From: a plasmid
Direction: 5' to 3' (one strand)
Length of the DNA stretch: 64,000 nucleotides
Sequence record: NZ_CP033968.1
The position numbers and the translations under genes were made by a program. The notes under the pieces are model-generated. The model ran no database searches. It was not told the DNA's origin and saw nothing but the letters and a program-made list of their open reading frames with translations. This document shows, piece after piece, positions 3,020-54,365 of this stretch. Each line of letters opens with the position of its first letter. The first letter of the stretch is position 1.

Positions 3020-3616
3020 TTGACCATATGGGACTGGTTTTTCCCCGCGCGAAGGAAGCGCACGAGGGAAGGGTTGCCTTCGATCGATGTCTCCACCACG
3101 GCTGACTTCTATAAGGTCTTCACTTCACCGAACCCTGTTCTGAGTGCGGCGATCCACAACATAGCCGGCGACCAGGTTGGCACGGCCAGATACTCCATCT
3201 CGCCGCTGTCGGACCGCGTCTATGTCTTCGACATCAGAATTGCTCCACACCATCAGCGGCATGGCTATGGGACCGCAATGCTCTGCTACCTCGCAAAGGA
3301 GTATGGCCAGCCGATTACCCCCATCCACGAAGTTGAGAGCGCCAACGAGTTCTGGGGCGCCGCCCGTCGCTACAGGGGAGCCGGCCTTTCCGTAACCGAA
3401 GATATCTCGATCAGCGAGATGGCACTCGAGGCGACGCGTTGGCAGCATCTCGCGCCCATCGCAGAGTGCCTGGACAAACTGATCACTAGACGGCTGAGTG
3501 TCGATCGCGAACCCTGGCATGTTGCCGTTGGTCGCGGGTTTGGCGCGGAGGACAACGGCGACGCCGCTACTTCTGGGCCGGCGATATCGGACGATTCGAA
3601 TACTGTGAGAACATGA
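3020..3616 (+). CDS. GNAT-family N-acetyltransferase-like protein
   Basis: TTG start with GAGGAG RBS; motif VFDIRIAPHHQRHGYGTAMLCYLAKEYG resembles GNAT motif A (R/Q-x-x-G-x-G/A). Confidence 0.4.
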   Translation: MTIWDWFFPARRKRTREGLPSIDVSTTADFYKVFTSPNPVLSAAIHNIAGDQVGTARYSISPLSDRVYVFDIRIAPHHQRHGYGTAMLCYLAKEYGQPITPIHEVESANEFWGAARRYRGAGLSVTEDISISEMALEATRWQHLAPIAECLDKLITRRLSVDREPWHVAVGRGFGAEDNGDAATSGPAISDDSNTVRT

Positions 3617-14503: not shown

Positions 14504-16078
14504 ATGCGCCAAGTTACCCAAGCTGATTTTCTTGCCCGCGCGCTCGAGGTGCACGGTGACCGCTACGACTACAGTCGTGCCATCTACAGTGGTTCAAATT
14601 CCAAACTCACCATCGTCTGCCGCACTCACGGGCCTTTTGAACAAACGCCCAGCAATCACTACAAGGGAAAGGGCTGTCGAGCTTGCGCCGGCGTCCAACC
14701 GTACACACTGCAGTCATTCGTTGACCGAGCGCGATCGCTCCATGGCGATCGGTATGGCTACGCCGAAGCCTTGCTGGTCAACGCACTGACCCCGCTCACA
14801 ATACGCTGCTCGGTACATGGGCTGTTCGAGCAAACGCCGCGTAGACACCTGTCCGGCGGCGGTTGCCCAAAATGTGCGATCACGCTTGGCGCAGATCGCC
14901 AGCGCGGTACGGCCGATAGCTTCATTGCCAAAGCCCATTCGGTGCATGGGGATCGATACGACTACAGCCGCGTCGCATATGCCGCGACGCACACGAAGGT
15001 TGTAATTGTCTGTCCCGAGCACGGGCCTTTTGAGCAAACCCCTGCGGCCCATCAGCGCGGCGCGGGCTGCCCAGCGTGCGCGGGCGTGGCTCGATTGGAC
15101 ACGAGTTCATTTGTCGCCCGCGCACGCGCAATCCATGGGCAGCGATTCGGATACGAGCGCACGGTGTATAGCAGTACGGCCAGCAAGCTCGTCGTGACCT
15201 GTCCGGAACACGGCGACTTTGAGATCCACCCGAGCGTGCACCTACGAGCAAATGGAGGTGGCGGCTGTCGATCGTGTATGGCCGAGCGTTTGTCTACGCG
15301 ATTCAGCAGAGGGACGGCTGGCTTCGTCGCCGACGCCCGCAAGGCGCACGGCGACAAGTACGACTACAGCGCAGTAGAGTATGTGAACAAGGAGCTCGAG
15401 GTTGTCATCGCTTGCCCGGTCCATGGTGAATTCCGCCAGCGGGCCGGCGTGCACATCACGGGCGGCGAGTGCCCGGCGTGCAGCTACGCCAAGCGCGGCG
15501 ATAAGCAGCGAATGAGCGAGGGCGAGTTTCTGGGGCGGGCGCGAGCCGCGCACGGTGACAGATACGACTACGGCCTCCTGAGCTACGCTGGCATGCACGA
15601 CTACGTGACGATCGTGTGCCCGGAACACGGCCCTTTTGAGCAAGTCGCAAACAGCCATATGCGGGGATGTGGGTGTCCAAGCTGCGCCGAACACGGGTTT
15701 GACCCCGACCAACCAGCCACGGTCTATGTCCTTGTCGTCATTGGTGACGAGGGTGGCTTTACCGGGTATGGCATCACGCGGGATCTGGACACCAGGCTGC
15801 GTGCACATCGGAAAAATCTGTCCGACGCCGGTTGGACTATCGCCAGGCTACATTTCGCAGAATTTGCGCATGGCCGAGACGCCCTCGACGTGGAGGCGTT
15901 GATCAAAGAGACCTTCGAGCTGACTGCTCAGGAGATCGATGGCTTTCGCACTGAGGCGACCCATCCGTGCAACTATGAGAAGATCATTCGGATCGTCGAC
16001 GAGCGTAAGCGGAAATGCAAAGGCGGAACATCAGTTGGACAAACTCAAATACAAGATCAAGGCGGCCAAAATCGCTAA
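14504..16078 (+). CDS. protein with six tandem ~65-aa Zn-ribbon-like repeats and a C-terminal GIY-YIG nuclease domain
   Basis: repeats HGD[RK]Y[DG]YS...VxCPEHGPFEQTP..H..G.GCPxC starting nt 14552, 14741, 14945, 15134, 15347, 15551; C-terminus VYVLVV...GYGITRDLDTRLRAH matches the GIY...YIG...R...H motif. Confidence 0.6.
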   Translation: MRQVTQADFLARALEVHGDRYDYSRAIYSGSNSKLTIVCRTHGPFEQTPSNHYKGKGCRACAGVQPYTLQSFVDRARSLHGDRYGYAEALLVNALTPLTIRCSVHGLFEQTPRRHLSGGGCPKCAITLGADRQRGTADSFIAKAHSVHGDRYDYSRVAYAATHTKVVIVCPEHGPFEQTPAAHQRGAGCPACAGVARLDTSSFVARARAIHGQRFGYERTVYSSTASKLVVTCPEHGDFEIHPSVHLRANGGGGCRSCMAERLSTRFSRGTAGFVADARKAHGDKYDYSAVEYVNKELEVVIACPVHGEFRQRAGVHITGGECPACSYAKRGDKQRMSEGEFLGRARAAHGDRYDYGLLSYAGMHDYVTIVCPEHGPFEQVANSHMRGCGCPSCAEHGFDPDQPATVYVLVVIGDEGGFTGYGITRDLDTRLRAHRKNLSDAGWTIARLHFAEFAHGRDALDVEALIKETFELTAQEIDGFRTEATHPCNYEKIIRIVDERKRKCKGGTSVGQTQIQDQGGQNR

Positions 16079-28186: not shown

Positions 28187-29278
28187 ATGCGCCATGAGTA
28201 CGATGTCCATACGGACGTCCTTGAGACTATCGTTGCGGCGACACCGGTCACGAAGAAGCACTCTGCGTTGCTGACTGCATTCGCGACCCGCACGGAGTTT
28301 CGTGGCGCCAGGTACGTGACAAGCAGCGACGAATTCAGCAGCCGTCCCGCACGGATCTTGAACTCCGATGGCGATGAGATTGCTGCAGACTACCGTGTGT
28401 GGGTTCAGCAGCAACTCGACGAGCACCGCGGCAATATCGATGCGCTGTGTGCCAGTAGTCGCGGCAAGGGCTACCTGCTGACAGAGATCCAGCCCGTCCT
28501 GCACTACTTCGTTCATGACCGTGGTTGCGCCCAGGACAACTTCGTTCAGATCGAGGTTTGGGCGGAGGTGGAATTTTGCGAACGCGAATTGTTCGCCCGC
28601 CGGGCGCCTAACTGGGGCCGTCCGTCTTTGCAGGAGCTCCGTGATGGCCGGCCTGACATGGGTTTGGAGGAGCGCTTCGAGCGGCGGGACTTGGGGGCCG
28701 CCCGATACAGGCTTGAAAGCGCCATCGACATGCAAGCGTTTGTCGCTGTCGCGGAATCGCTCTGTTCCGAGCGGCACCGGAAAGGCGGTAACATCCTTGT
28801 ACGTGTCACGGATGCCGATACCGGGGAGGAGTCTGTGACATCGGTACGGGATCTGACACCGGGCTATGATCAACTGCGCGTACGGGAGCGGCGGATATTT
28901 GACGACTGGACAGCTTCAAGTGCGGGGCGGTCCGGCGAACGCATCTGCATGCGCTGGGTGTTCCAGACGTCGGATTGGCCAGACGAGAAGGGTGTTCGTT
29001 GGGTCTCCTTTGTCCCGCGGTGGGCACACAAGAAGAACATTGCCGCGCTGAAGAACACCGGCAAGCTCGACGCATATGGCCTATACGGGCGCCTCACTCA
29101 ATTCGACAGCCGCATCGGGATGCCTTTCGCCTGGTATTTTTACGGGCTGCATGGCAACCGGGTGAGGGATGCCCACCTTGAGCGCGTTGTCGAGGCGGCC
29201 GAGGAAGGTCTGATCGTACTGCCTGAGAATGACTATCGCGTGCTACGGCGTTGGCGTGATGTTCCCTATGGTTTTTGA
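28187..29278 (+). CDS. hypothetical protein (candidate effector of methyltransferase module)
   Basis: 363-aa ORF, no recognisable motif by eye. Confidence 0.5.
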   Translation: MRHEYDVHTDVLETIVAATPVTKKHSALLTAFATRTEFRGARYVTSSDEFSSRPARILNSDGDEIAADYRVWVQQQLDEHRGNIDALCASSRGKGYLLTEIQPVLHYFVHDRGCAQDNFVQIEVWAEVEFCERELFARRAPNWGRPSLQELRDGRPDMGLEERFERRDLGAARYRLESAIDMQAFVAVAESLCSERHRKGGNILVRVTDADTGEESVTSVRDLTPGYDQLRVRERRIFDDWTASSAGRSGERICMRWVFQTSDWPDEKGVRWVSFVPRWAHKKNIAALKNTGKLDAYGLYGRLTQFDSRIGMPFAWYFYGLHGNRVRDAHLERVVEAAEEGLIVLPENDYRVLRRWRDVPYGF

Positions 29279-29307
29279 CGGACGGATGATGCTGGAAAAG
29301 ACTTTGG

Positions 29308-29589
29308 ATGTATGTATGCAAGCTCCGCGAGCTGCTGGAAGAAACTCATGGTTCGCGAGCCATGGTGTACAAGGACCTCTTCGCCCTTGGCTGCTGGCTC
29401 CATCTGAACGGTAAGAGGGCCGTTGGGGAGAAGATCATCAAGGAGGTCATCACTTCCGTCTCGGGACTAGGCAACCGCACCTATCTCGCCTCCGTTGCAA
29501 AGCAGATCGCTGGGAATGAGGGAGGCTGGGCTGCTGAGATCTTCGCGCACCAGGAGGTCAACGATTTGTTCGCCAGCGAGGCAGCGTAG
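29308..29589 (+). CDS. hypothetical protein
   Basis: 93-aa ORF. Confidence 0.35.
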   Translation: MYVCKLRELLEETHGSRAMVYKDLFALGCWLHLNGKRAVGEKIIKEVITSVSGLGNRTYLASVAKQIAGNEGGWAAEIFAHQEVNDLFASEAA

Positions 29590-29845
29590 GCCCCTGGCCC
29601 CACTGCATGGGCAGCTTTCTCCGTTTGGGCCCGATAGCATCTACCGAATACCACCGACGCAATCGCGTCATCCCGAAGTGACAACGTCGACCGTGTACCG
29701 GCTGTTACGCCGGCGCAGTGAGTATTGGTAGAATTTGTCAAAAGTACATAAAACGTGCATCGGGAGGATTTCGAGTGCAGGATTTTCAGGGAAGCGTTGG
29801 CCGGCTCGGCGGCCTGGTGGGGGCAGTAGGACTGGGGTCGAAGTG

Positions 29846-31528
29846 ATGGGTGGCCCTGTCGTGCTTGTCGACTTCGAGAATGTGCAGGCGATCGATTTTG
29901 GGCGGCTAGCGCCGGACACCCGCATCGCCGTGTTCGCGGGCGAGCTGCAGCGGAAAGTACCGATCGAGGTGGCCATGGGGCTGCAGGAGATGGGGGAGCG
30001 CGCTCGCTGGGTGCGCTCGAGCGGCACCGGTCCAAACGCACTTGACTTTCATATTGCCTTCGAGCTCGGCCGAATGGCGCAGGCTGGTGAGCAGGGACCG
30101 GTGGTGGTCCTGTCTCGGGACAAGGGCTTTGATCCGCTACTCGATTGGCTCCGGACTCAGCACGGAATCCCCGCCAGCCGTGTTACGACCATCGCAGAAG
30201 CATTCGGATACACTCCAGACGCCCCATACGCGCCGCAGGCAGCAGAGCCGATTGTGGTTGACTTTGGGGCCGTGACGCCGGCGCCAAGGCCGACGCAACC
30301 GGCCTTGCAGAGCAATGGCATGCATGTCGCGGAACCGCATTTCATGCGATCCCTTCAGGCAGAGGCAAGCAGCGTGGTTCCAAGGTCGGTACCCCAGGCA
30401 GTGCCTGTGCCGGCGAGCAAAGCGGTTGGCGCCAGTGGCGCGATGCACAGTACAGAAAAGCGCCGCCTTCGTTGGTACCAGCAGACTCTCAGGCGGGCTG
30501 GCGTCCTTGAGCGTGTCGAGGGTGAGAGGGGGGTTTGGAAGCTCGCCGATGCGGCGAGCAAGGATCTGTGCAAGGCGCAGGCGACGACGAAACTGGTTGC
30601 CTTCAGTACAGATCTCGGCGTCGCAATATGGAGCAAGGCCGAAAGCACCTTCCCCAGTTTTGACGAGCCGATCGCGCTCGTGGTCACTTCGACTCCATAT
30701 CCATTGAGACGGCCGCGTGCGTACGGGAACCCGACGGAGGCCGATTTCGTTGACTTCATCTGCCATGCTGTAGAGCCGATTGCCAAAAATCTGATCCCGG
30801 GCGCCTCAGTGATATTGAACATTGGCCTGGATATCTTCGAGGAAGGGAGCCCGGCGCGTTCTCTTTACCCTGAACGGCTTACTCTGGCCCTGCGCGATCG
30901 ACTCGGATTGAGCCTTATGGACCGCATCCCCTGGGTGAACTACTCGAAGCCGCCGGGCCCCACGTACTGGGCCTGTGTGAAGCGGGTCCAGCTCTCCGCC
31001 GCATATGAGCAGGTGCTCTGGCTGACAAACGATCCAATGAGGGTCCGATCCGATAACCGGCGCGTACTTGAACCGCATACAGATCGACACTTGGAGCTCA
31101 TGCAGAGCGGCGGCGCCAACCGGACTGCAGTCTACGGGGACGGAGCATACCGACTGCGGCCAAACTCCTTTGGCAAGGTCACTTCCGGCAAGATTCCGCG
31201 AAACGTCATAGAGCGCGGTCATGCCTGTTCGGACACACGCGCCTATCGCCAGCATGCGAAGGCGCTTGGCCTTCCGATTCACGGCGCCATGCAGCCGACC
31301 GATATCGCGGACTTCTTTATCCGCCTCTGCACAGAACCTGGTGAGTTGGTGGTTGACCTCTTTGCCGGGACCGTGAAGACGGGGCTGGCAGCAGAACGCC
31401 TGGGCAGGCGGTGGCTGGTGACCGAAATGATGCTCTCCTACCTCCGAGGTGCGGCGGAGATGTTCCGCGGTGCGCCTGGATTCGATCTCAATCCTGCGCT
31501 CGAGTGTGTCGGTGGGATGCGCAGCTGA
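29846..31528 (+). CDS. NYN/PIN-like domain fused to beta-class N6/N4 DNA methyltransferase
   Basis: N-terminus VVLVDFENV...DFHIAFEL (NYN-like); motif IV VVTSTPYP then C-terminal motif I VVDLFAGTVKTG (N6_N4 methyltransferase order); start 29846 (ORF-track 29735). Confidence 0.7.
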   Translation: MGGPVVLVDFENVQAIDFGRLAPDTRIAVFAGELQRKVPIEVAMGLQEMGERARWVRSSGTGPNALDFHIAFELGRMAQAGEQGPVVVLSRDKGFDPLLDWLRTQHGIPASRVTTIAEAFGYTPDAPYAPQAAEPIVVDFGAVTPAPRPTQPALQSNGMHVAEPHFMRSLQAEASSVVPRSVPQAVPVPASKAVGASGAMHSTEKRRLRWYQQTLRRAGVLERVEGERGVWKLADAASKDLCKAQATTKLVAFSTDLGVAIWSKAESTFPSFDEPIALVVTSTPYPLRRPRAYGNPTEADFVDFICHAVEPIAKNLIPGASVILNIGLDIFEEGSPARSLYPERLTLALRDRLGLSLMDRIPWVNYSKPPGPTYWACVKRVQLSAAYEQVLWLTNDPMRVRSDNRRVLEPHTDRHLELMQSGGANRTAVYGDGAYRLRPNSFGKVTSGKIPRNVIERGHACSDTRAYRQHAKALGLPIHGAMQPTDIADFFIRLCTEPGELVVDLFAGTVKTGLAAERLGRRWLVTEMMLSYLRGAAEMFRGAPGFDLNPALECVGGMRS

Positions 31529-31696: not shown

Positions 31697-31826
31697 TGTG
31701 GGCTTTACCTGCAGCGCGGGGAGTAATCCCTAGGGGAATGCCGAACAAATTGGGTCTTATTCCGCGTCCTGCCCCGGACTTGTCTATAGTAGGATGTTAT
31801 AAGCAAGGTAAATTGGAGACCGGTGA

Positions 31827-32114
31827 ATGGCTACATTGAAAGACCTTCTTGCCCAGAAGGAAAAATTAGAGGCGCAGATCGCGGAGACTCGCCAGACTGA
31901 GGTGGCGGGCGTCATTCAGAAGATTCAGGAACTGATGGCGGAATATGGGCTGACGGTGGACGACGTCGCCAAGCGCTCGCGGCGCGGCCCTAAGAAGGGC
32001 CAGCCTATTGCGCCGAAGTATCGCGATCCTAAGACCGGCAAGACGTGGTCTGGCCGCGGGCGGCAACCGTCTTGGCTAGGTCGGAACCCAAATCGGTTCT
32101 TGATCGCGGAGTAG
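31827..32114 (+). CDS. H-NS-like nucleoid-associated protein (xenogeneic silencer)
   Basis: coiled-coil N-terminus; C-terminal DPKTGKTWSGRGRQPSWL matches the H-NS DNA-binding motif (TWTGRGRxPxW). Confidence 0.8.
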   Translation: MATLKDLLAQKEKLEAQIAETRQTEVAGVIQKIQELMAEYGLTVDDVAKRSRRGPKKGQPIAPKYRDPKTGKTWSGRGRQPSWLGRNPNRFLIAE

Positions 32115-32398
32115 TCTGAGGGCCCGGCCACCGGCGGGGTTCTGCCGGTTGGCCCACCACTGCGCCGAAAGCACCGAATCGTGGCATTGATGCCAAAAGC
32201 CATCCGAAGCTGTGGCGTACGTATGTTTGTCGACTCATTGAAGCACTAATCGCGGACCTTGCCAGGCAGCGCCCAGGGCGCTGAAGGATCGCTGATACCC
32301 TGATCGGTAGTTTCCCCCGTTTTGCCCACGGCCAGTCCTGGAATTATGCCGTGGCGTTTTGCATACCTCTCCGCAAGTCAACCCGTTAGGAGAGCCCT

Positions 32399-32749
32399 GT
32401 GCAAACGTTCATTCATTTGGAAGATCCGGCTGTTCAAGCCGCGATCATCAGCGCCGTCGGAAGTATCCTGACAAGTGCGATCGCCGCACTGTGCGCGGCC
32501 ATCATCGGCAGACAAATCAGTGGTAAGAAGCGACTCCAGGACAAGCTGCTCGTTGCTCAGGACGACATCGAGTTCCTCTTGCAAGTCGAGAAGGCGCACT
32601 GCGTCATACACAAGGAGCGCGACCAAAGCTCGAATAAGCTCATAGTCCGGAATACCGTACGGGACAAAGGCTTCGAGTACTCAGGCAAGTTCTCGCCTGG
32701 AAAAGTAGCCTACAACGATGGCCCAGGCCGTCGCTACAGCAAGGCTTAG
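32399..32749 (+). CDS. hypothetical protein with N-terminal TM helix
   Basis: AGGAGAG RBS, GTG start; 116 aa. Confidence 0.4.
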   Translation: MQTFIHLEDPAVQAAIISAVGSILTSAIAALCAAIIGRQISGKKRLQDKLLVAQDDIEFLLQVEKAHCVIHKERDQSSNKLIVRNTVRDKGFEYSGKFSPGKVAYNDGPGRRYSKA

Positions 32750-32769
32750 AGCCGGCTCAGCCTCGACAA

Positions 32770-32816
32770 GGGGCGCGTCATCGACCATCGGTCCGACGCG
32801 CCCCTTTTTTTCTTTT
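32770..32816 (+). terminator. rho-independent terminator
   Basis: GGGGCGCGTC...GACGCGCCCC then TTTTTTTCTTTTT. Confidence 0.7.
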
Positions 32817-32931
32817 TGCTCTTCTCCTCTCCCCGCCAGGAATGGCATAGGCAGATCTTCCACTGCGCTGTGCGGCATAACAAGCCATCCACCAACGGCT
32901 CCCACGCCACGCACTCGCAAGGAGACATCGA

Positions 32932-33414
32932 ATGCTGTCACTGGCCCTCAACTATCCGACGATCGAGTTCAACACCAACGCCTGCGGCGAACTGCATACC
33001 GGCGATGCTCCACAAGGCATCCTGGCTGCCGTTCCGTTCCAGGATGGCCCCGGGTATGTACTCCCGTACCTGACGACGATCAATGATCGCTTTTATGTTC
33101 TTGGCAACCTGGAAGTCGCCTTCAGTGATGAGAAGTTCTGGGGCAGGGATGCTGAGGATCTGCCGGACGAGGAGCTTGTCATGTCCGAGTGCACGCAAGC
33201 TGTCCTGGCTATGCGAGAACGGGCATCGGGCTCCATGATCGTCTTTCCGGTGGACTTCGATCCCATGCCGGCACGCTGCGTCATCTCCGTGGCCATTCCC
33301 GTGCAGGATGGCCAAACCCAACGGGAAATCAAGGATCAGCTGTCCCTTGTTTTCTCCGGCTACGAGCAGCTCGACGATAGGCTGATGAAGCTTGTCAGGG
33401 CTCGGTCGCATTGA
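32932..33414 (+). CDS. hypothetical protein
   Basis: AAGGAGA RBS; 160 aa. Confidence 0.45.
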   Translation: MLSLALNYPTIEFNTNACGELHTGDAPQGILAAVPFQDGPGYVLPYLTTINDRFYVLGNLEVAFSDEKFWGRDAEDLPDEELVMSECTQAVLAMRERASGSMIVFPVDFDPMPARCVISVAIPVQDGQTQREIKDQLSLVFSGYEQLDDRLMKLVRARSH

Positions 33415-33417
33415 CCG

Positions 33418-33462
33418 CTAACCCACCGCCCGCAGACACGATTCGTGCTGCGGGCTTTTTTC
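33418..33462 (+). repeat. terminator-like hairpin repeat, copy 1 of 3
   Basis: CTAACCCAcCGCCCGCAGACACGATTCGTGCTGCGGGCTTTTTT; near-identical copies at 35370 and 35911. Confidence 0.6.
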
Positions 33463-33649
33463 TTATCCCCGCAAGTGTACGCCGGCGCCCGCCGGCGCCA
33501 CGCCGTCTCCCCTTGCTTGAACCTGTGGCGCATACCTTCAGCGTCAAGACATCGACTCTGGCTAGATCAGGTCAACACCTACTATTCACCCACGCGGGGA
33601 AGCGCCTCCCGCTTGGGGCGCACTTCGCACGCAAATCTGGAGAAGCGAA

Positions 33650-34213
33650 ATGAGCAATGGCATGAACCTACCGAAGATCGCGCGACGCACCGATGTGTTC
33701 GAGCTGCGCAACGCCGTTCGAGCCGTGATTGGAAGCTGCAAGGCAACGAACAAGGCGGCAGTGCTTGCCGTTGACGCCGCAGAGGAAGCGTTTCAGGCGA
33801 GCATCACAGACGACGAGAAGGCGTACATCGTATCTGCCGCCCGTGGGTGGAAAGCCGCCTGGCATAAGAGCCGGCCGGACGATCCTTTCCTTCGTGGCGT
33901 GGAGTTCAATGCCTACGATGACGTCCGGCACCATTTGGGGATGTCGATGGTGGTCAAGTTCCTCCAGGACGCCCAGAGCGAATCGTTGGCAGAGCCTGAC
34001 ACCCGTCGTATCGCTGGTCTCGTGCTGGAAGGGGGCGATGAATCCGTGCTCGATAGTGTGGTGCACGATGAGTGCTCTGCTCACGGCACGGGAATCAACA
34101 ATGACGGTACTGAAGCACAGGTGGCATATCTCCTGGCGAACGGATGGACCGAAGAGGCGATCCTGAAGGAAGCCGGTGTCGATCAGGCGCCGCGCAGCTC
34201 GTCGCAAACGTGA
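33650..34213 (+). CDS. hypothetical protein
   Basis: GGAGAAG RBS; 187 aa. Confidence 0.45.
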   Translation: MSNGMNLPKIARRTDVFELRNAVRAVIGSCKATNKAAVLAVDAAEEAFQASITDDEKAYIVSAARGWKAAWHKSRPDDPFLRGVEFNAYDDVRHHLGMSMVVKFLQDAQSESLAEPDTRRIAGLVLEGGDESVLDSVVHDECSAHGTGINNDGTEAQVAYLLANGWTEEAILKEAGVDQAPRSSSQT

Positions 34214-34215
34214 AA

Positions 34216-34256
34216 CCCGCCCGTCGCGCTCCTCGAGAGCCGGCGGGTTTTTTCTT
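34216..34256 (+). terminator. rho-independent terminator
   Basis: ACCCGCC...GGCGGGT then TTTTTCTTT. Confidence 0.55.
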
Positions 34257-34303
34257 TGAGCTAAGCCTGCCCGCTGAACCGCCCGCGTGCACTCGTACTC
34301 GGC

Positions 34304-35356
34304 ATGGCGCCCCCGTATCCCAAAAAGTTACTTGACGCTGTGCTGCATCCCTCCCAGGTCAAATCAACCTTGGAGTGCTGCGATATGAATGGAGAGACGA
34401 TGGGAATGCCGGTAGGGCAGGTGAATGCGATCCTGGAAGATGAGTTGGTCATGCGGATTGGCATCCCGCACCGCGGTGGCCGCCTGGCCTTCCACGCATT
34501 CGAGCAAGGCTACCCGGCGATGGTGAGCGCGAACGCGTTCTGGAACCCAACGAAGCGAGAGTTTGTGATGCCGGCGGCGACGGATCTGACTGAGATGGAT
34601 TTTGCCCTAGACTCAGCTGGTTACTCGGCGATCAGTCTTTGGCAGAAGAAGGGCCGACAAGACGGCATTGCTGGCGTCTATCCATGGTCCCTCGAGCAAT
34701 ACCTGGAGTTTGCAAATCTGTGTGGTGCTCGCTGGATGTCTAGTCCAGACCTTTGCTGCGAGCCGCAGGTTGCGGGCAACCAAGAGGAAGTGGACTACCG
34801 CGTGAACACAACGGCAACTTTGCTGGAGGCGTCGTTACGAGTGTTGTACGAGTGGCAGAACAGGCTCGCAAGGACGCTAACTGCGCGCGAAGTGGCGAAC
34901 ATGATCAAGCCAGTCGTTCCCGTGCTACAGGGTTGGAATTGTGACACGTATCTACGGAGTCTCGATCTAACAATGCAAGTATGGGAGCGCTGGCAACCGT
35001 GGCTGGCCCCACCCGCTCTAATCGGTGTCGGTTCAGTATGCCGGCGTTCGCTGAATCACCCTACTCACGGCCTGTACGCCATTCTCTCGGGATTGGAGGG
35101 ACGGTTGCCTAAGGGTGTTCGCGCTCACTTGTTCGGTGTCAAGGGGAGCTGTCTCGCGGAGCTCAAGATGATGGATTGGATCGCTTCCGCGGATTCCATG
35201 GCGTATGACTTCGGCGCCCGAGTGAAAGCTCGGGAGAGTGGAGTCTCGAACACGGTCAAGCATCGCTCTTCAGAGATGAGTCGATGGATGTCATCGGCCT
35301 CGTCTCGCCTCAAGCCTGCACCCGGTGACCAATTCCGATTGAGCCTGGCCCATTGA
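34304..35356 (+). CDS. TGT-fold (tRNA-guanine transglycosylase-like) protein, possible DpdA-like DNA transglycosylase
   Basis: FVMPAATD and LDSAGYSA resemble TGT motifs FMPVGT and DSGGFQ; no C-terminal Zn cluster; alternative start 34385 with GGAG RBS. Confidence 0.35.
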   Translation: MAPPYPKKLLDAVLHPSQVKSTLECCDMNGETMGMPVGQVNAILEDELVMRIGIPHRGGRLAFHAFEQGYPAMVSANAFWNPTKREFVMPAATDLTEMDFALDSAGYSAISLWQKKGRQDGIAGVYPWSLEQYLEFANLCGARWMSSPDLCCEPQVAGNQEEVDYRVNTTATLLEASLRVLYEWQNRLARTLTAREVANMIKPVVPVLQGWNCDTYLRSLDLTMQVWERWQPWLAPPALIGVGSVCRRSLNHPTHGLYAILSGLEGRLPKGVRAHLFGVKGSCLAELKMMDWIASADSMAYDFGARVKARESGVSNTVKHRSSEMSRWMSSASSRLKPAPGDQFRLSLAH

Positions 35357-35369
35357 TTACCAACCTACA

Positions 35370-35407
35370 GCCCGCAGACACGAATTTCGTGCTGCGGGCT
35401 TTCATTT
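35370..35407 (+). repeat. terminator-like hairpin repeat, copy 2
   Basis: GCCCGCAGACACGAATTTCGTGCTGCGGGCTTTCATTT. Confidence 0.6.
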
Positions 35408-35508
35408 ATGTGACGGCGGGCAAAGGGCAAAGGTGGCGCTCAGCCCCGCGCGTTTGCATGATTCTGTGCCGCATATCTCCCAAGTCAACACAACTATGGA
35501 GTAGCGCG

Positions 35509-35790
35509 ATGAACGAAAACGTATTGGGGAATCCGAAGGGACAGGCTACGCACAGAACTATGGAATCAAGCGAACAGAAGCTTCCGGAGGGTTGGACCGA
35601 GGCGAGGCCTGGTGGGTTGGCAACAAATCCTGATCCCCTTACCGGGGGAATCATCGATAGTGCGATAGTAGATGGAACATGGTTTGTAGTGTTCCACCGG
35701 GACGATCTGAAGGTCCTGGAGGGCTTGCCCTCTCGTGAGAGCGCCTTTGCTGCCTTCTTCGAAGCGATTCACGGAAACCAAATGGCGTGA
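35509..35790 (+). CDS. hypothetical protein
   Basis: GGAG RBS before ATG 35509; 93 aa. Confidence 0.35.
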   Translation: MNENVLGNPKGQATHRTMESSEQKLPEGWTEARPGGLATNPDPLTGGIIDSAIVDGTWFVVFHRDDLKVLEGLPSRESAFAAFFEAIHGNQMA

Positions 35791-35910
35791 CGGTATGTAG
35801 CCGCGCAGCTATCTCGGCGGATGTGTTCACCCGCCTCGCGCCACAAGCCCGCAGGTTCCGGATGAGCTTGCTTGTGTACGCGGAGAAGAGTCAGTCGGCC
35901 GTACCGATCG

Positions 35911-35966
35911 CTAACCCAATCGCCCGCAGACACGATGTTTCGTGCCGCGGGCTTTGCCTTTTTTGG
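35911..35966 (+). repeat. terminator-like hairpin repeat, copy 3
   Basis: CTAACCCAATCGCCCGCAGACACGATGTTTCGTGCCGCGGGCTTTGCCTTTTTTGG. Confidence 0.6.
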
Positions 35967-36168
35967 GGCGCAAAAGGTCGGTGAACGGGCAGCAGCGCAT
36001 TTGAGCTCCACCTGGCCGGTGAAGTTGTGGTTGGCTGTGCTGCATACCTCCCGAGCAAGAGTAAACCGGCATGTTGACACCCGTTCAACTGAGCGCTTCC
36101 GACCTATGCGAGGTTGAGCGTTGCTGGGTTCCCAAATGGACTTAGGAGGATGTGATGGAGCAAGTGAA

Positions 36169-36888
36169 ATGAAAGTACAACAAACCTACCATATCGTATG
36201 TGCGATTCGGGGCGAACTCATCGACTACTCGAGCGGCCGATCCGGCCTTTGTGACTTCTATATGGGTACGGTGGATAGCGAAAGCGGGCGTCTCTCGCTC
36301 GATCGCACCGACAGGGAAGTATCTCTTTTCGTGAAAGATGGCACGCCGCTCTGTTGCATTCAGGTGGGCGATAGCTGGAAGAACTATCCCGTAACGGAGG
36401 AGGGGGTGGCGGTCCTGACGCGCGACGCTCTGAAGGCACTGATCGAAGCGACTTCTCCTAAAGGCCTGGCCGGTGAACCGCGGAAACTCTCCAACGGTAT
36501 GGTGTTGGTAAAAGTACAGGAGGCGTCTGAAGCTGTCTTGGATTGGGCCGTCGCGATGTGTGAAGGCATGGACCCCTCCGGCGGTGGAATCTACGATCCA
36601 GTGAACAACTTCATCGCGTGGCGCTCGATCAGCAGAAGGGCCGATTTCTCACGTAATGCGGCATTGGCTCTGCCCATCATCGAGCGTGAGGATATGTGGG
36701 TGGCCAGTGCTCGGTATATGGCACCCTCCGCCGTTCCTCGGCCTGAACGCGCATGGATGGCGAAGTCGTTGAATTCCGCGCCGCACGAACCGTCTTACGG
36801 GCCTACGCTCCTCATCGCGGCCATGCGCTGCTACGTAACAAGCAAGCTTGGGGAGCAGATCGAGGTTCCTGCCAAACTGCTGATGTAA
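36169..36888 (+). CDS. hypothetical protein with C-terminal DUF2591 (phage NinX-like) region
   Basis: VLDWAVAMCEGMD...IYDPVNN block resembles DUF2591; preceded by 5-codon leader ORF MEQVK (36155-36172) whose TGA overlaps this ATG. Confidence 0.45.
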   Translation: MKVQQTYHIVCAIRGELIDYSSGRSGLCDFYMGTVDSESGRLSLDRTDREVSLFVKDGTPLCCIQVGDSWKNYPVTEEGVAVLTRDALKALIEATSPKGLAGEPRKLSNGMVLVKVQEASEAVLDWAVAMCEGMDPSGGGIYDPVNNFIAWRSISRRADFSRNAALALPIIEREDMWVASARYMAPSAVPRPERAWMAKSLNSAPHEPSYGPTLLIAAMRCYVTSKLGEQIEVPAKLLM

Positions 36889-53480: not shown

Positions 53481-54365
53481 ATGAACGACCAGGACAAGAT
53501 TCGCCAATTGGGGCAGTACCCGACGCCCGCGTTGAACGACCAGGACAAGATTCGCCAATTGGGGCAGTACCCGACGCCCGCGTGGGCGGCGGAGCAGCTT
53601 GTCGAGCGGTACTTCGGCGACCTCGGGCGAGACGACCTTGTTATCGAGCCGGCCTGCGGCCCTGGCGCTTTCCTTGGGGCAATTCCGACTGATGTGCCGG
53701 CGATCGGCGTTGAGATTGATCCACTGGCGGCCGAGTGCGCGCGAGTCGCGACCGGACGCGAGGTAATCACTGGTGACTTCTGCACGGTTGACTTGGAGGC
53801 GAGGCCCACGGCAATCATCGGCAACCCTCCGTTCAAGCTGGCGCTGGTGGACAAGTTCCTTGCTCGCGCACATGCATTGCTGCCGGAAGGGGGGAGGGTT
53901 GGATTCCTTCTGCCGGCCTACGCGTTCCAGACCGCGAGCCGCGTAGTGGACTACAACCAGCGTTGGACCATCGCGCAGGAGCTCGTGCCGCGGAATGTGT
54001 TCGATGGCTTGCGGCTCCCCTTGGTGTTCGCGCTCTTTCACAAAGAGCGCCATCGCAGGCTTCTGGGATTTGCCTTGTTTCACGAGACCGTTGCTGTGCA
54101 CCGCATGCAGGACGACTACCAGTTCGTTCTGAAGCAGGGGAGCGGCCCCATTTGGCGCAAGGTTATCGAGCTTGCGCTACGCCGCCTGGGAGGTGAGGCT
54201 AGCTTGGCTGATATTTATGAAGAGCTGCAGCGCAACCGTCCAACTGACACCCGTTGGTGGAGAGAGAAGATCCGTCAAACCTTACGGCGTTATGCCGAGG
54301 TATTTGTTGTAAAGGGGGAGGGAAGATATGCGCTGTCCGCCTCGCCCAACTGTACAGGCGCGTAG
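53481..54365 (+). CDS. N6-adenine DNA methyltransferase (small gamma-class) carrying N-terminal in-frame tandem duplication
   Basis: LGQYPTP (twice), motif I IEPACGPGAFL, motif IV IIGNPPF. Confidence 0.7.
   Translation: MNDQDKIRQLGQYPTPALNDQDKIRQLGQYPTPAWAAEQLVERYFGDLGRDDLVIEPACGPGAFLGAIPTDVPAIGVEIDPLAAECARVATGREVITGDFCTVDLEARPTAIIGNPPFKLALVDKFLARAHALLPEGGRVGFLLPAYAFQTASRVVDYNQRWTIAQELVPRNVFDGLRLPLVFALFHKERHRRLLGFALFHETVAVHRMQDDYQFVLKQGSGPIWRKVIELALRRLGGEASLADIYEELQRNRPTDTRWWREKIRQTLRRYAEVFVVKGEGRYALSASPNCTGA
53484..53585 (+). repeat. 51-bp direct tandem duplication (2 copies, 50/51 identical) inside methyltransferase 5' end
   Basis: AACGACCAGGACAAGATTCGCCAATTGGGGCAGTACCCGACGCCCGCGT(T/G)G at 53484-53534 and 53535-53585. 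Confidence 0.9.

Follow-up and report, generated by a model that had tools for sequence, protein, structure and literature searches.

Repeated terminator-like hairpins and leader motifs between unrelated genes of a Cupriavidus megaplasmid

How do genes that are not related to one another come to be bounded by copies of the same short repeats? The question is raised by the region at 32.3-36.9 kb of a 64,000-nucleotide stretch of plasmid DNA (record NZ_CP033968.1; the whole stretch is called the window below), where a run of genes is preceded by one recurrent motif (the 5' motif) and, at three places, followed by one recurrent hairpin. A first-pass annotation, made from the sequence alone, had described this array as cassette-like and had offered either a cassette-insertion mechanism or a promoter-terminator family specific to this element. 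Over positions 31800-37000 the sequence shows 100% identity to plasmid p1 of Cupriavidus metallidurans BS1, a 364-kb replicon that typing classes as conjugative (MOBP relaxase, MPF_F mating system). The best explanation, to which we give a probability of roughly 0.6, is that unrelated single-gene units are spaced by copies of a composite terminator-leader module and that these copies recombine with one another. The idea of a promoter-terminator family was essentially right: the repeats are local and lie exactly at gene boundaries, where they bracket unrelated single-gene units.

Repeats at the gene boundaries

The proteins of the array are mutually unrelated (best pairwise BLASTP E-value 0.04), in agreement with the earlier statement that the genes between the repeats are not paralogues. 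By Pfam, the gene that had been called TGT (tRNA-guanine transglycosylase)-like belongs to the DpdA family, and the one called DUF2591-like is a NinX-family gene; the four other genes between the H-NS gene and the NinX-like gene have no Pfam match (Table 1).

An intrinsic terminator is expected to show a GC-rich stem-loop that passes directly into a U-run where a gene ends, and at the level of sequence the hairpins have these features. The hairpin repeat was recovered at the three sites first reported, as exact matches to the pattern GCCCGCAGACACGA-N(0-8)-TCGTGCYGCGGGC (33428-33455, 35370-35399 and 35922-35952; 0.00 expected by chance). The predicted RNA hairpins of copies 1, 2 and 3 have dG values of -22.3, -25.0 and -21.3 kcal/mol (z -5.5, -7.2 and -2.7) and a simple shape, a 13-bp stem with a 3-5 nt loop and one bulged A in the 5' arm, the bulge being present in 3/3. 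All three copies share the 5' flank CTAACCCA, and copies 1 and 2 begin 14 nt past a stop codon. The T-run is T6 in copy 1, while in copies 2 and 3 it consists of TTT, 2-3 other bases and then more T. Almost every array gene has a putative terminator of its own, and genes lacking the family hairpin have clear other ones; the array therefore appears to be a chain of monocistronic units. Just 5' of the hairpins, stops occur in two or three frames (CATTGAccgcTAAccc at window 33409-33427 and 35351-35369), and likewise 5' of a terminator hairpin on an independent Logan contig, L011 (gcgTAAcTAGaTAAgtc at 3080-3100). Such stops would let the module end translation of whatever gene is joined to it.

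The 5' motif was found in six clear copies in the window, together with three degenerate ones (32868, ~42465 and ~42945). The four sites listed in the first-pass annotation (32361, 33530, 35471 and 36042) are real and stand at the distances from start codons that had been given; copies at 34345, before the DpdA-like gene, and at 41582 had been overlooked. With up to 3 mismatches allowed, the motif consensus gives 3 window matches versus 0.06 expected. The skeleton TTRN8YGTKN3CATNNCNC, taken from other plasmids, has 4 exact window matches versus 0.02 expected, all 4 of them on the plus strand and at motif sites. When a hidden Markov model (HMM) was built from the three L011 copies only, its top three matches in the window were at 35449, 34338 and 36035.

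The motif follows the hairpin by 72-90 nt in 3/3 cases, and whole intergenic regions can be aligned, beginning with the final codons of the preceding gene (CATTGA) and ending at the next ATG. On the plasmid of C. campinensis MJ1 (L003), the region between g160 and dpdA is 74% identical over 148 nt to that between dpdA and g93 of the same plasmid (E 2e-18), and it is also 74% identical over 148 nt to the dpdA-g93 region of the window. L011 has two intergenic regions with 72% identity over 201 nt, but their terminator hairpin belongs to another family. Judging from these alignments, the hairpin and the motif are two ends of one unit, and the intergenic regions are paralogous as wholes.

Recombination between such modules would be expected to leave a hybrid copy where related plasmids differ by a gene. 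The variable gene g187 is present with its terminator in the window, in the plasmids of C. metallidurans Ni-2 (L002) and Cupriavidus sp. EM10 and in Cupriavidus sp. 2SB, and is absent from the MJ1 plasmid and L011. In its place the MJ1 plasmid carries a single module, which is like window copy 2 of the 5' module (W2) upstream of and through GCATACCT and like window copy 3 (W3) downstream. The switch lies in a 3-nt interval (CCT) inside the best-conserved core, GCAT(A/C)CCT. This W2/W3 hybrid therefore points to exchange between two module copies, or to the reverse insertion. The term cassette-like holds loosely, in that g187 is present or absent in relatives and the junction falls inside the motif; an integron-type mechanism is not supported (see below). 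The slot after g93 varies as well, with the NinX gene in the window, two small open reading frames (ORFs) in the MJ1 plasmid and a 291-aa gene in L011, and its right end is outside any module.

The two leaders of L011 are 89% identical to each other and 61-65% identical to their window orthologues; modules therefore evolve in concert within a plasmid. Other insertions and deletions touch the array. In place of the 170 bp between the H-NS gene and module copy 1 (window 32163-32334), the Ni-2 and MJ1 plasmids have 30 bp of unrelated sequence; this indel, too, ends just upstream of a module. The g93 gene of the Ni-2 plasmid is interrupted by an inserted element (L002 9712-14900, corresponding to window 35673). 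The element starts with two genes for tyrosine recombinases, has two hypothetical genes after them, and resembles the "gamma-mobile-trio" recombinase gene (gmtY) annotated under a match on the MJ1 plasmid.

Table 1 Array genes, putative terminators and 5' modules by window position (SD, Shine-Dalgarno sequence).
Feature	Position	Strand	Basis or remark
H-NS family gene, precedes the array	31827..32114	+	Pfam PF00816, E 1e-12; RefSeq annotation
5' module copy 1 (g116 type): TTAT-N8-CGTT-N3-CAT-AC-CTCTCC, loop GCAAGTCAACCC, SD GGAGAG, GTG start	32344..32398	+	
g116, 116-aa ORFan, hydrophobic N-terminal stretch (read from sequence)	32399..32749	+	GTG start
Putative intrinsic terminator of g116, GGGGCGCGTC...GACGCGCCCC + T7, outside the hairpin family	32770..32811	+	Read from sequence
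Degenerate 5' module copy, CTGTGCGGCATAAC, upstream of g160	32868..32885	+	Sequence reading; weak nhmmer match
g160, ORFan, ends ...CATTGA	32932..33414	+	
Hairpin copy 1, flank CTAACCCA, T6 run, likely intrinsic terminator	33418..33461	+	Pattern match, folding
5' module copy 2, TTGCTTGAACCTGTGGCGCATACCT..., SD degenerate	33513..33565	+	Real g187 ribosome-binding site ~75 nt further on
g187, ORFan, variable gene	33650..34213	+	Absent from L003 and L011
Putative intrinsic terminator of g187, CCCGCCCG...CCGGCGGG + T6, outside the hairpin family	34216..34253	+	Read from sequence
5' module copy 3, upstream of DpdA-like gene, motif at 34345	34328..34384	+	
Orphan DpdA-family (TGT-like) gene, ends ...CATTGA	34385..35356	+	Pfam PF23859, E 1.5e-15
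Hairpin copy 2	35360..35402	+	Pattern match, folding
5' module copy 4	35454..35508	+	Consensus, HMM and skeleton matches
g93, ORFan	35509..35790	+	
Hairpin copy 3, 130 nt past the g93 stop	35911..35966	+	Pattern match, folding
5' module copy 5, 5' half intact, 3' half divergent, then ~100 nt of other leader	36025..36070	+	
NinX-family gene	36169..36888	+	Pfam PF10765
5' module copy 6, motif at 41582, upstream of gene 41623-42174	41565..41622	+	
Weak leader-model match, GGCATCTCC..GCAAGTCAAC, 11.4 bits	42454..42524	+	Ends 13 nt into gene from 42511
Leader-model match, 16.9 bits	42934..43002	+	Ends 13 nt into gene from 42989

The leader block

Homologues of g116, the first gene of the array, are encoded on 62 plasmid records, with hosts in Cupriavidus, Burkholderia, Caballeronia, Ralstonia, Methylibium, Azospira, Pseudomonas, Stenotrophomonas, Vibrio, Shewanella and others. 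Among the leaders read, those of the Betaproteobacterial and the Pseudomonas and Stenotrophomonas homologues resemble the window motif. A covariance model from ten g116-type leaders detected further copies before other genes on the same plasmids, and every match ends 12-13 nt past an annotated start codon. When 30 copies from about a dozen megaplasmids are anchored on CAT, they read TT(A/G)-N8-Y-G-T-K-N3-CAT-NN-CTCC; CAT and the G at -6 are found in 30/30, and the T at -17 and the T at -5 in 29/30 each. No conservation is seen in this profile upstream of -18, and no -35 is conserved.

Other promoter types were compared by eye with the block. Spacing or key bases do not fit for sigma-54 (GG-N10-GC), sigma-32 (CTTGAA-N13-14-CCCCAT) or extracytoplasmic function (ECF) sigma factors (GAAC-N16-17-CGTC). 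An antisense promoter on the reverse strand, TTGACn-N16-CAGnnT, fits four window copies and fails for the g116-type and L011 copies, and was for that reason rejected as the conserved feature.

The CAT-NN-CTCC stretch is complementary to the SD sequence and the start codon. In nearly all g116 orthologues, despite very different sequences, the predicted minimum-energy fold pairs CAT..CTCC with the SD and start region, and for 18 orthologue leaders from Beta- and Gammaproteobacteria the mean folding z is -1.96 (p 9e-6). Copy 1 of the window scores 57 bits with covariance model R1, and its predicted fold-back hairpin has a dG of -21 and a z of -2.8. Compensatory changes are observed (CUCC/GGAG to CCCC/GGGG in Pseudomonas, C-G to A-U in Methylibium), and in the Pseudomonas leader GAAGCAU pairs perfectly with AUGCUUC. 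The presence of sense-strand G-U pairs points to structure at the RNA level. In fixed columns, 70.7-72.5% of cells are paired versus 35-50% when partners are slid; in a 35-sequence alignment the values are 66.7% versus 34-42%, and the covariation score lies above all but 0-5 of 500 shuffles. These results make a fold-back hairpin credible for the first gene, g116. Rfam 15 gave 0 matches at gathering thresholds across the whole window and only chance-level ones in 32100-36300; a match of CRISPR-DR28 to hairpin 3 (E 0.8) was set aside as chance level.

We propose that the ~150-nt module has three parts. The first part, made up of the upstream gene's final codons and stop, the extra-frame stops, the bulged GC-rich hairpin and the T-run, would terminate the upstream gene. 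It would be followed by a variable spacer of ~45 nt and then by a block of ~55 nt, TTR-N8-YGTK-N3-CAT-NN-CTCC-(GC)AAGT..CAAC(C)-SD-ATG, which would drive and tune the downstream gene. Within this block, TTR may be the -10-like element of a promoter without a -35, and the invariant G of YGT may be the transcript start. CAT..CTCC would then fold back on the start codon and the SD sequence, and the resulting 5'-terminal hairpin would damp translation or make the mRNA more stable. Modules that are alike would recombine, so that they are homogenised within a plasmid, and the gene between two copies would be deleted or inserted with a chimeric module left behind.

Several observations weigh against this proposal. 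A sigma-70 -35/-10 pair at a consistent sense-strand position was found neither by a consensus scan nor by a permissive motif-anchored scan, in the 30-copy profile the last position of the supposed -10 is not the usual T, and the promoter and transcript start stay putative. RNAalifold gave no consensus structure on the orthologue alignment. The nine motif-bearing genes of the BS1 array are not more structured than 38 neighbours (z -0.39 versus +0.21, p 0.13), nor are their initiation regions more paired (0.52 versus 0.51). The fold-back is therefore supported for the leader of the first gene only; for the tandem copies it is an unproven prediction of the model. The T-runs of hairpins 2 and 3 are interrupted, and only ~five related plasmids carry this module family. 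A crossover within CCT, in repeats that are ~60-65% similar as read from the sequences, is short for RecA recombination, and the four lineages would fit either a gain or a loss of g187.

Distribution, rival explanations and known systems

The distribution of the repeats bears on whether they are a small non-coding element spread into intergenic regions, like the repetitive extragenic palindromic (REP) and bacterial interspersed mosaic element (BIME) families or like miniature inverted-repeat transposable elements (MITEs). Palindromic, GC-rich intergenic units and the weak TTGAC...GTCAA inverted pair at the module ends would be consistent with such a family. However, the entire 364-kb BS1 plasmid holds 3 copies of the hairpin, clustered within 2.6 kb and all oriented the same way with respect to the genes, and not the hundreds of copies of a genome-wide REP element that the first-pass annotation had named as the contrary outcome. 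There are 2 copies each in the MJ1, Ni-2 and EM10 plasmids and, chance partial matches apart, none in the other 72,556 PLSDB records. The window form of the 5' motif occurs in the same four plasmids, and a search of 185,579 species genomes with the motif pattern returned one contig, from Cupriavidus sp. 2SB, which has the Ni-2 version and belongs to the same plasmid clade. IMG/VR has zero matches to either the hairpin or the 5' motif pattern, a hairpin scan of the JGI metagenomes gave 4 chance matches to the 5' arm only, and the part of the window shared with pMOL30 has no leader-model matches; in PubMed Central full text the motif strings are found only in unrelated primer sequences. Neither target duplications nor terminal inverted repeats long enough to be useful were seen, and we consider a dispersed element of this kind most unlikely. 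The repeats could also be neutral relics of a few local duplications of intergenic DNA and gene ends, their similarity decaying without a shared function, and the small copy number and the half-degenerate state of copies 2 and 5 would agree with this. Yet core positions are kept in 30 copies from about a dozen plasmids of different genera, orthologous copies are conserved from TTR to ATG while the DNA just upstream has diverged, and paralogues within one plasmid stay alike. Decaying relics are hence quite improbable.

Some features recall site-specific recombination, in which the motif or hairpin would be the site of a dedicated integron-like or Xer/pdif-like recombinase inserting promoter-gene-terminator cassettes. 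The sole resolved junction falls within 3 nt in the best-conserved core, where homology seems too short for RecA, the extrahelical base of the hairpin is conserved, as in attC sites, and tyrosine recombinases are present on the plasmid. As in integrons, unrelated genes stand in tandem, each with an imperfect hairpin after it, and their content varies in relatives. However, the R''-L''/L'-R' layout of attC is not present in the hairpin and no GTTRRRY core follows any of the three copies; attI and Pc were not seen either, and each unit has its own 5' block and terminator, unlike integron cassettes. The first-pass annotation had advised looking for an integrase gene outside the window, and in the ~305 kb of the 364-kb plasmid whose annotation was read, no gene is called intI (a reading without a profile search, from a PLSDB gene table that is incomplete). 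The recombinases that are annotated lie beside Tn3 or insertion sequences (IS) or inside a separate inserted element, not adjoining the array. The right side of the replacement in the NinX slot ends outside the modules, and the L011 modules use a different hairpin; drift and conversion fit better than a fixed site. In Acinetobacter plasmids, pdif (XerC/XerD) modules are discrete gene modules that are bounded by short conserved sites and move between plasmids. Short conserved sites bound the modules here too, and GCGCATA of the motif is faintly like a XerC arm, but an XerD arm and the 11-6-11 layout are missing, and the sites are direct rather than inverted repeats. The pdif pattern GCATAA-N6-TTATGTTAA, with up to 3 mismatches, has 0 matches in the window, and the Xer/dif resemblance of GCGCATA was rejected. 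By these comparisons, in which copy number was judged on the plasmids, the array is not an integron, a REP or a pdif system, each of which fails on a defining feature, and a dedicated site-specific mechanism is very unlikely. A further possibility is that the 5' motif acts at the DNA level only, as promoter or operator of a regulon under a plasmid-encoded sigma factor, activator or repressor; complementarity to the SD sequence and start codon would then be without function, and the shared hairpins would simply be duplicated terminators. This would explain why TTR, YGT and CAT keep the same spacing regardless of the next gene, why G-6 and T-5 are invariant though their supposed pairing partners vary, why the tandem copies of the window show no excess structure, and why RNAalifold gives no consensus on the orthologue alignment. 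Regulators are also encoded near the array (two helix-turn-helix (HTH) regulators, H-NS and HU). In contrast, the leader of the first gene combines significant folding with compensatory changes and sense-strand G-U pairs in distant hosts, the conserved block extends to the start codon, past any promoter, and no operator-typical palindrome or iteron is visible. Regulation by DNA sites only is rather unlikely, though it is the strongest of the rivals.

The composite terminator-leader module can also be compared with known arrangements of expression signals. The morons of lambdoid phages are genes with their own promoter and terminator, inserted between older genes. The array would likewise consist of autonomous promoter-gene-terminator units, with unrelated accessory genes in one orientation; morons have no common repeated flank, whereas here the flanks are paralogous and apparently a substrate for recombination. 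Leaders that sequester the SD sequence include RNA thermometers (ROSE, fourU) and the early-transcript hairpins of T4 gene e and soc. As in these, a 5' stretch complementary to the SD sequence, and here also to the start codon, may close the initiation region, and in the leaders of g116 and its orthologues the predicted structure recurs across hosts. The differences are that no Rfam family matches, that the loop has its own conserved GCAAGT..CAACC and that one design stands before many unrelated genes of a single replicon.

The closest analogues are the promoter-early stem-loops (PeSLs) of T4-type phages (Arbiol et al. 2010, PMC2839356; Comeau et al. 2014, PMC4122927). A PeSL is a conserved intergenic motif that begins at a stop codon, takes in a stem-loop terminator and a promoter and ends at the SD and start region, and its promoter activity, terminator activity and mini-circles have been demonstrated experimentally (PMC2839356, PMC4122927). 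The plasmid modules are, in their sequence, the same kind of composite, reaching from the upstream stop to the downstream SD and start region, and they are concentrated before ORFans in a variable region. The comparison of cassette boundaries across related plasmids, which the first-pass annotation had suggested, gave the PeSL picture: genomes that differ by one ORF, before ORFans in the variable region, with a single chimeric module at the junction. In both systems the modules would give expression signals to whichever gene sits between them. Here, in contrast, the replicon is no phage but a GC-rich conjugative megaplasmid, the hairpin stands outside the promoter-like block, 72-90 nt upstream, and there is no sigma-70 consensus promoter, while the 5' block has an anti-SD/anti-start stretch. 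Functions have been shown by experiment in the phages, whereas the plasmid modules are known from their sequence.

Gene content, setting and implications

For g187 only 3 distant, partial homologues were found on plasmids, with no donor context. The DpdA-family gene has 444 database relatives, many of them from Burkholderiales plasmids. No dpdB-K genes are visible adjoining the orphan DpdA-family gene (34385-35356), and on the plasmid of Cupriavidus sp. TMH.W2 a queuosine-salvage family gene, PF10343 (L013 2459-3298), lies 2.7 kb upstream of the DpdA-family gene; the orphan DpdA and this neighbour are hints of 7-deazaguanine modification of plasmid DNA. Directly after motif copy 5, a 25-codon upstream ORF begins (36071-36148), and as read from the sequence its TAG overlaps the SD sequence of the NinX-like gene, so that translational coupling is possible.

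The array is set in a long run of small genes that are mostly co-oriented and mostly annotated as hypothetical, with orphan DNA methyltransferase, H-NS and HU genes interspersed. Outside 31800-37000 the window also matches the BS1 p1 record, IS66 insertions excepted. The upstream backbone is partly common to pMOL30 of strain CH34, and the plasmid is a pMOL30-related megaplasmid. The array might belong to the leading region of the plasmid, but no relaxase gene or oriT was found in the annotation of the same ~305 kb. A block of ~3.7 kb that is found in BS1 p1, Ni-2 and MJ1 is absent from the window at the junction 30423/30424; besides a DUF6388 gene it contains four small genes, and one of these four has the leader motif on the minus strand. 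Identity to the C. campinensis plasmid is 100% for window 29278-30424 and only 93% for the next segment, so the backbone is a mosaic. A class I S-adenosylmethionine (SAM)-dependent methyltransferase gene (53481-54365) has its first 17 codons doubled by a perfect tandem duplication of 51 bp right at its start (53482-53583). One large ORF holds at least 4 diverged internal repeats, spaced by 190-400 bp (14522-15650), in a region annotated as GIY-YIG nuclease family; their common motifs are ...CACGG.GAC...TACGACTACAG and TG.CC.GA.CACGG.CCTTTTGAGCAA.

A broader reading is tentative and less likely than not. The leader block could be an undescribed cis-regulatory unit of a wide superfamily of Beta- and Gammaproteobacterial megaplasmids, in which a -35-less core (TTR-N8-YGT) is joined to a 5'-terminal hairpin with a GCAAGT..CAACC loop that closes the SD and start region, and through which a dedicated trans factor would switch dozens of accessory genes together; fused to a terminator, it would be the plasmid counterpart of a PeSL. 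If this is true, DNA methylases, H-NS and HU, the orphan DpdA and the ORFans would be co-switched, for example just after transfer, and new genes would be plugged in already wired to the shared control.

If the composite modules do recombine as proposed, PeSL-style shuffling, in which repeated terminator/promoter spacers serve accessory genes both for expression and for mobilisation, would not be confined to phages and would also occur in the ORFan-rich variable regions of conjugative megaplasmids. The large conjugative plasmids concerned carry metal and drug resistance, and the modules would offer a handle on how megaplasmids co-regulate their long runs of small "establishment" genes. The 55-nt block, with its three invariant positions, is present in many plasmids of Cupriavidus, Burkholderia, Ralstonia, Methylibium and Pseudomonas, and it marks true start codons and transcription units in regions where nearly all of the annotation reads "hypothetical".

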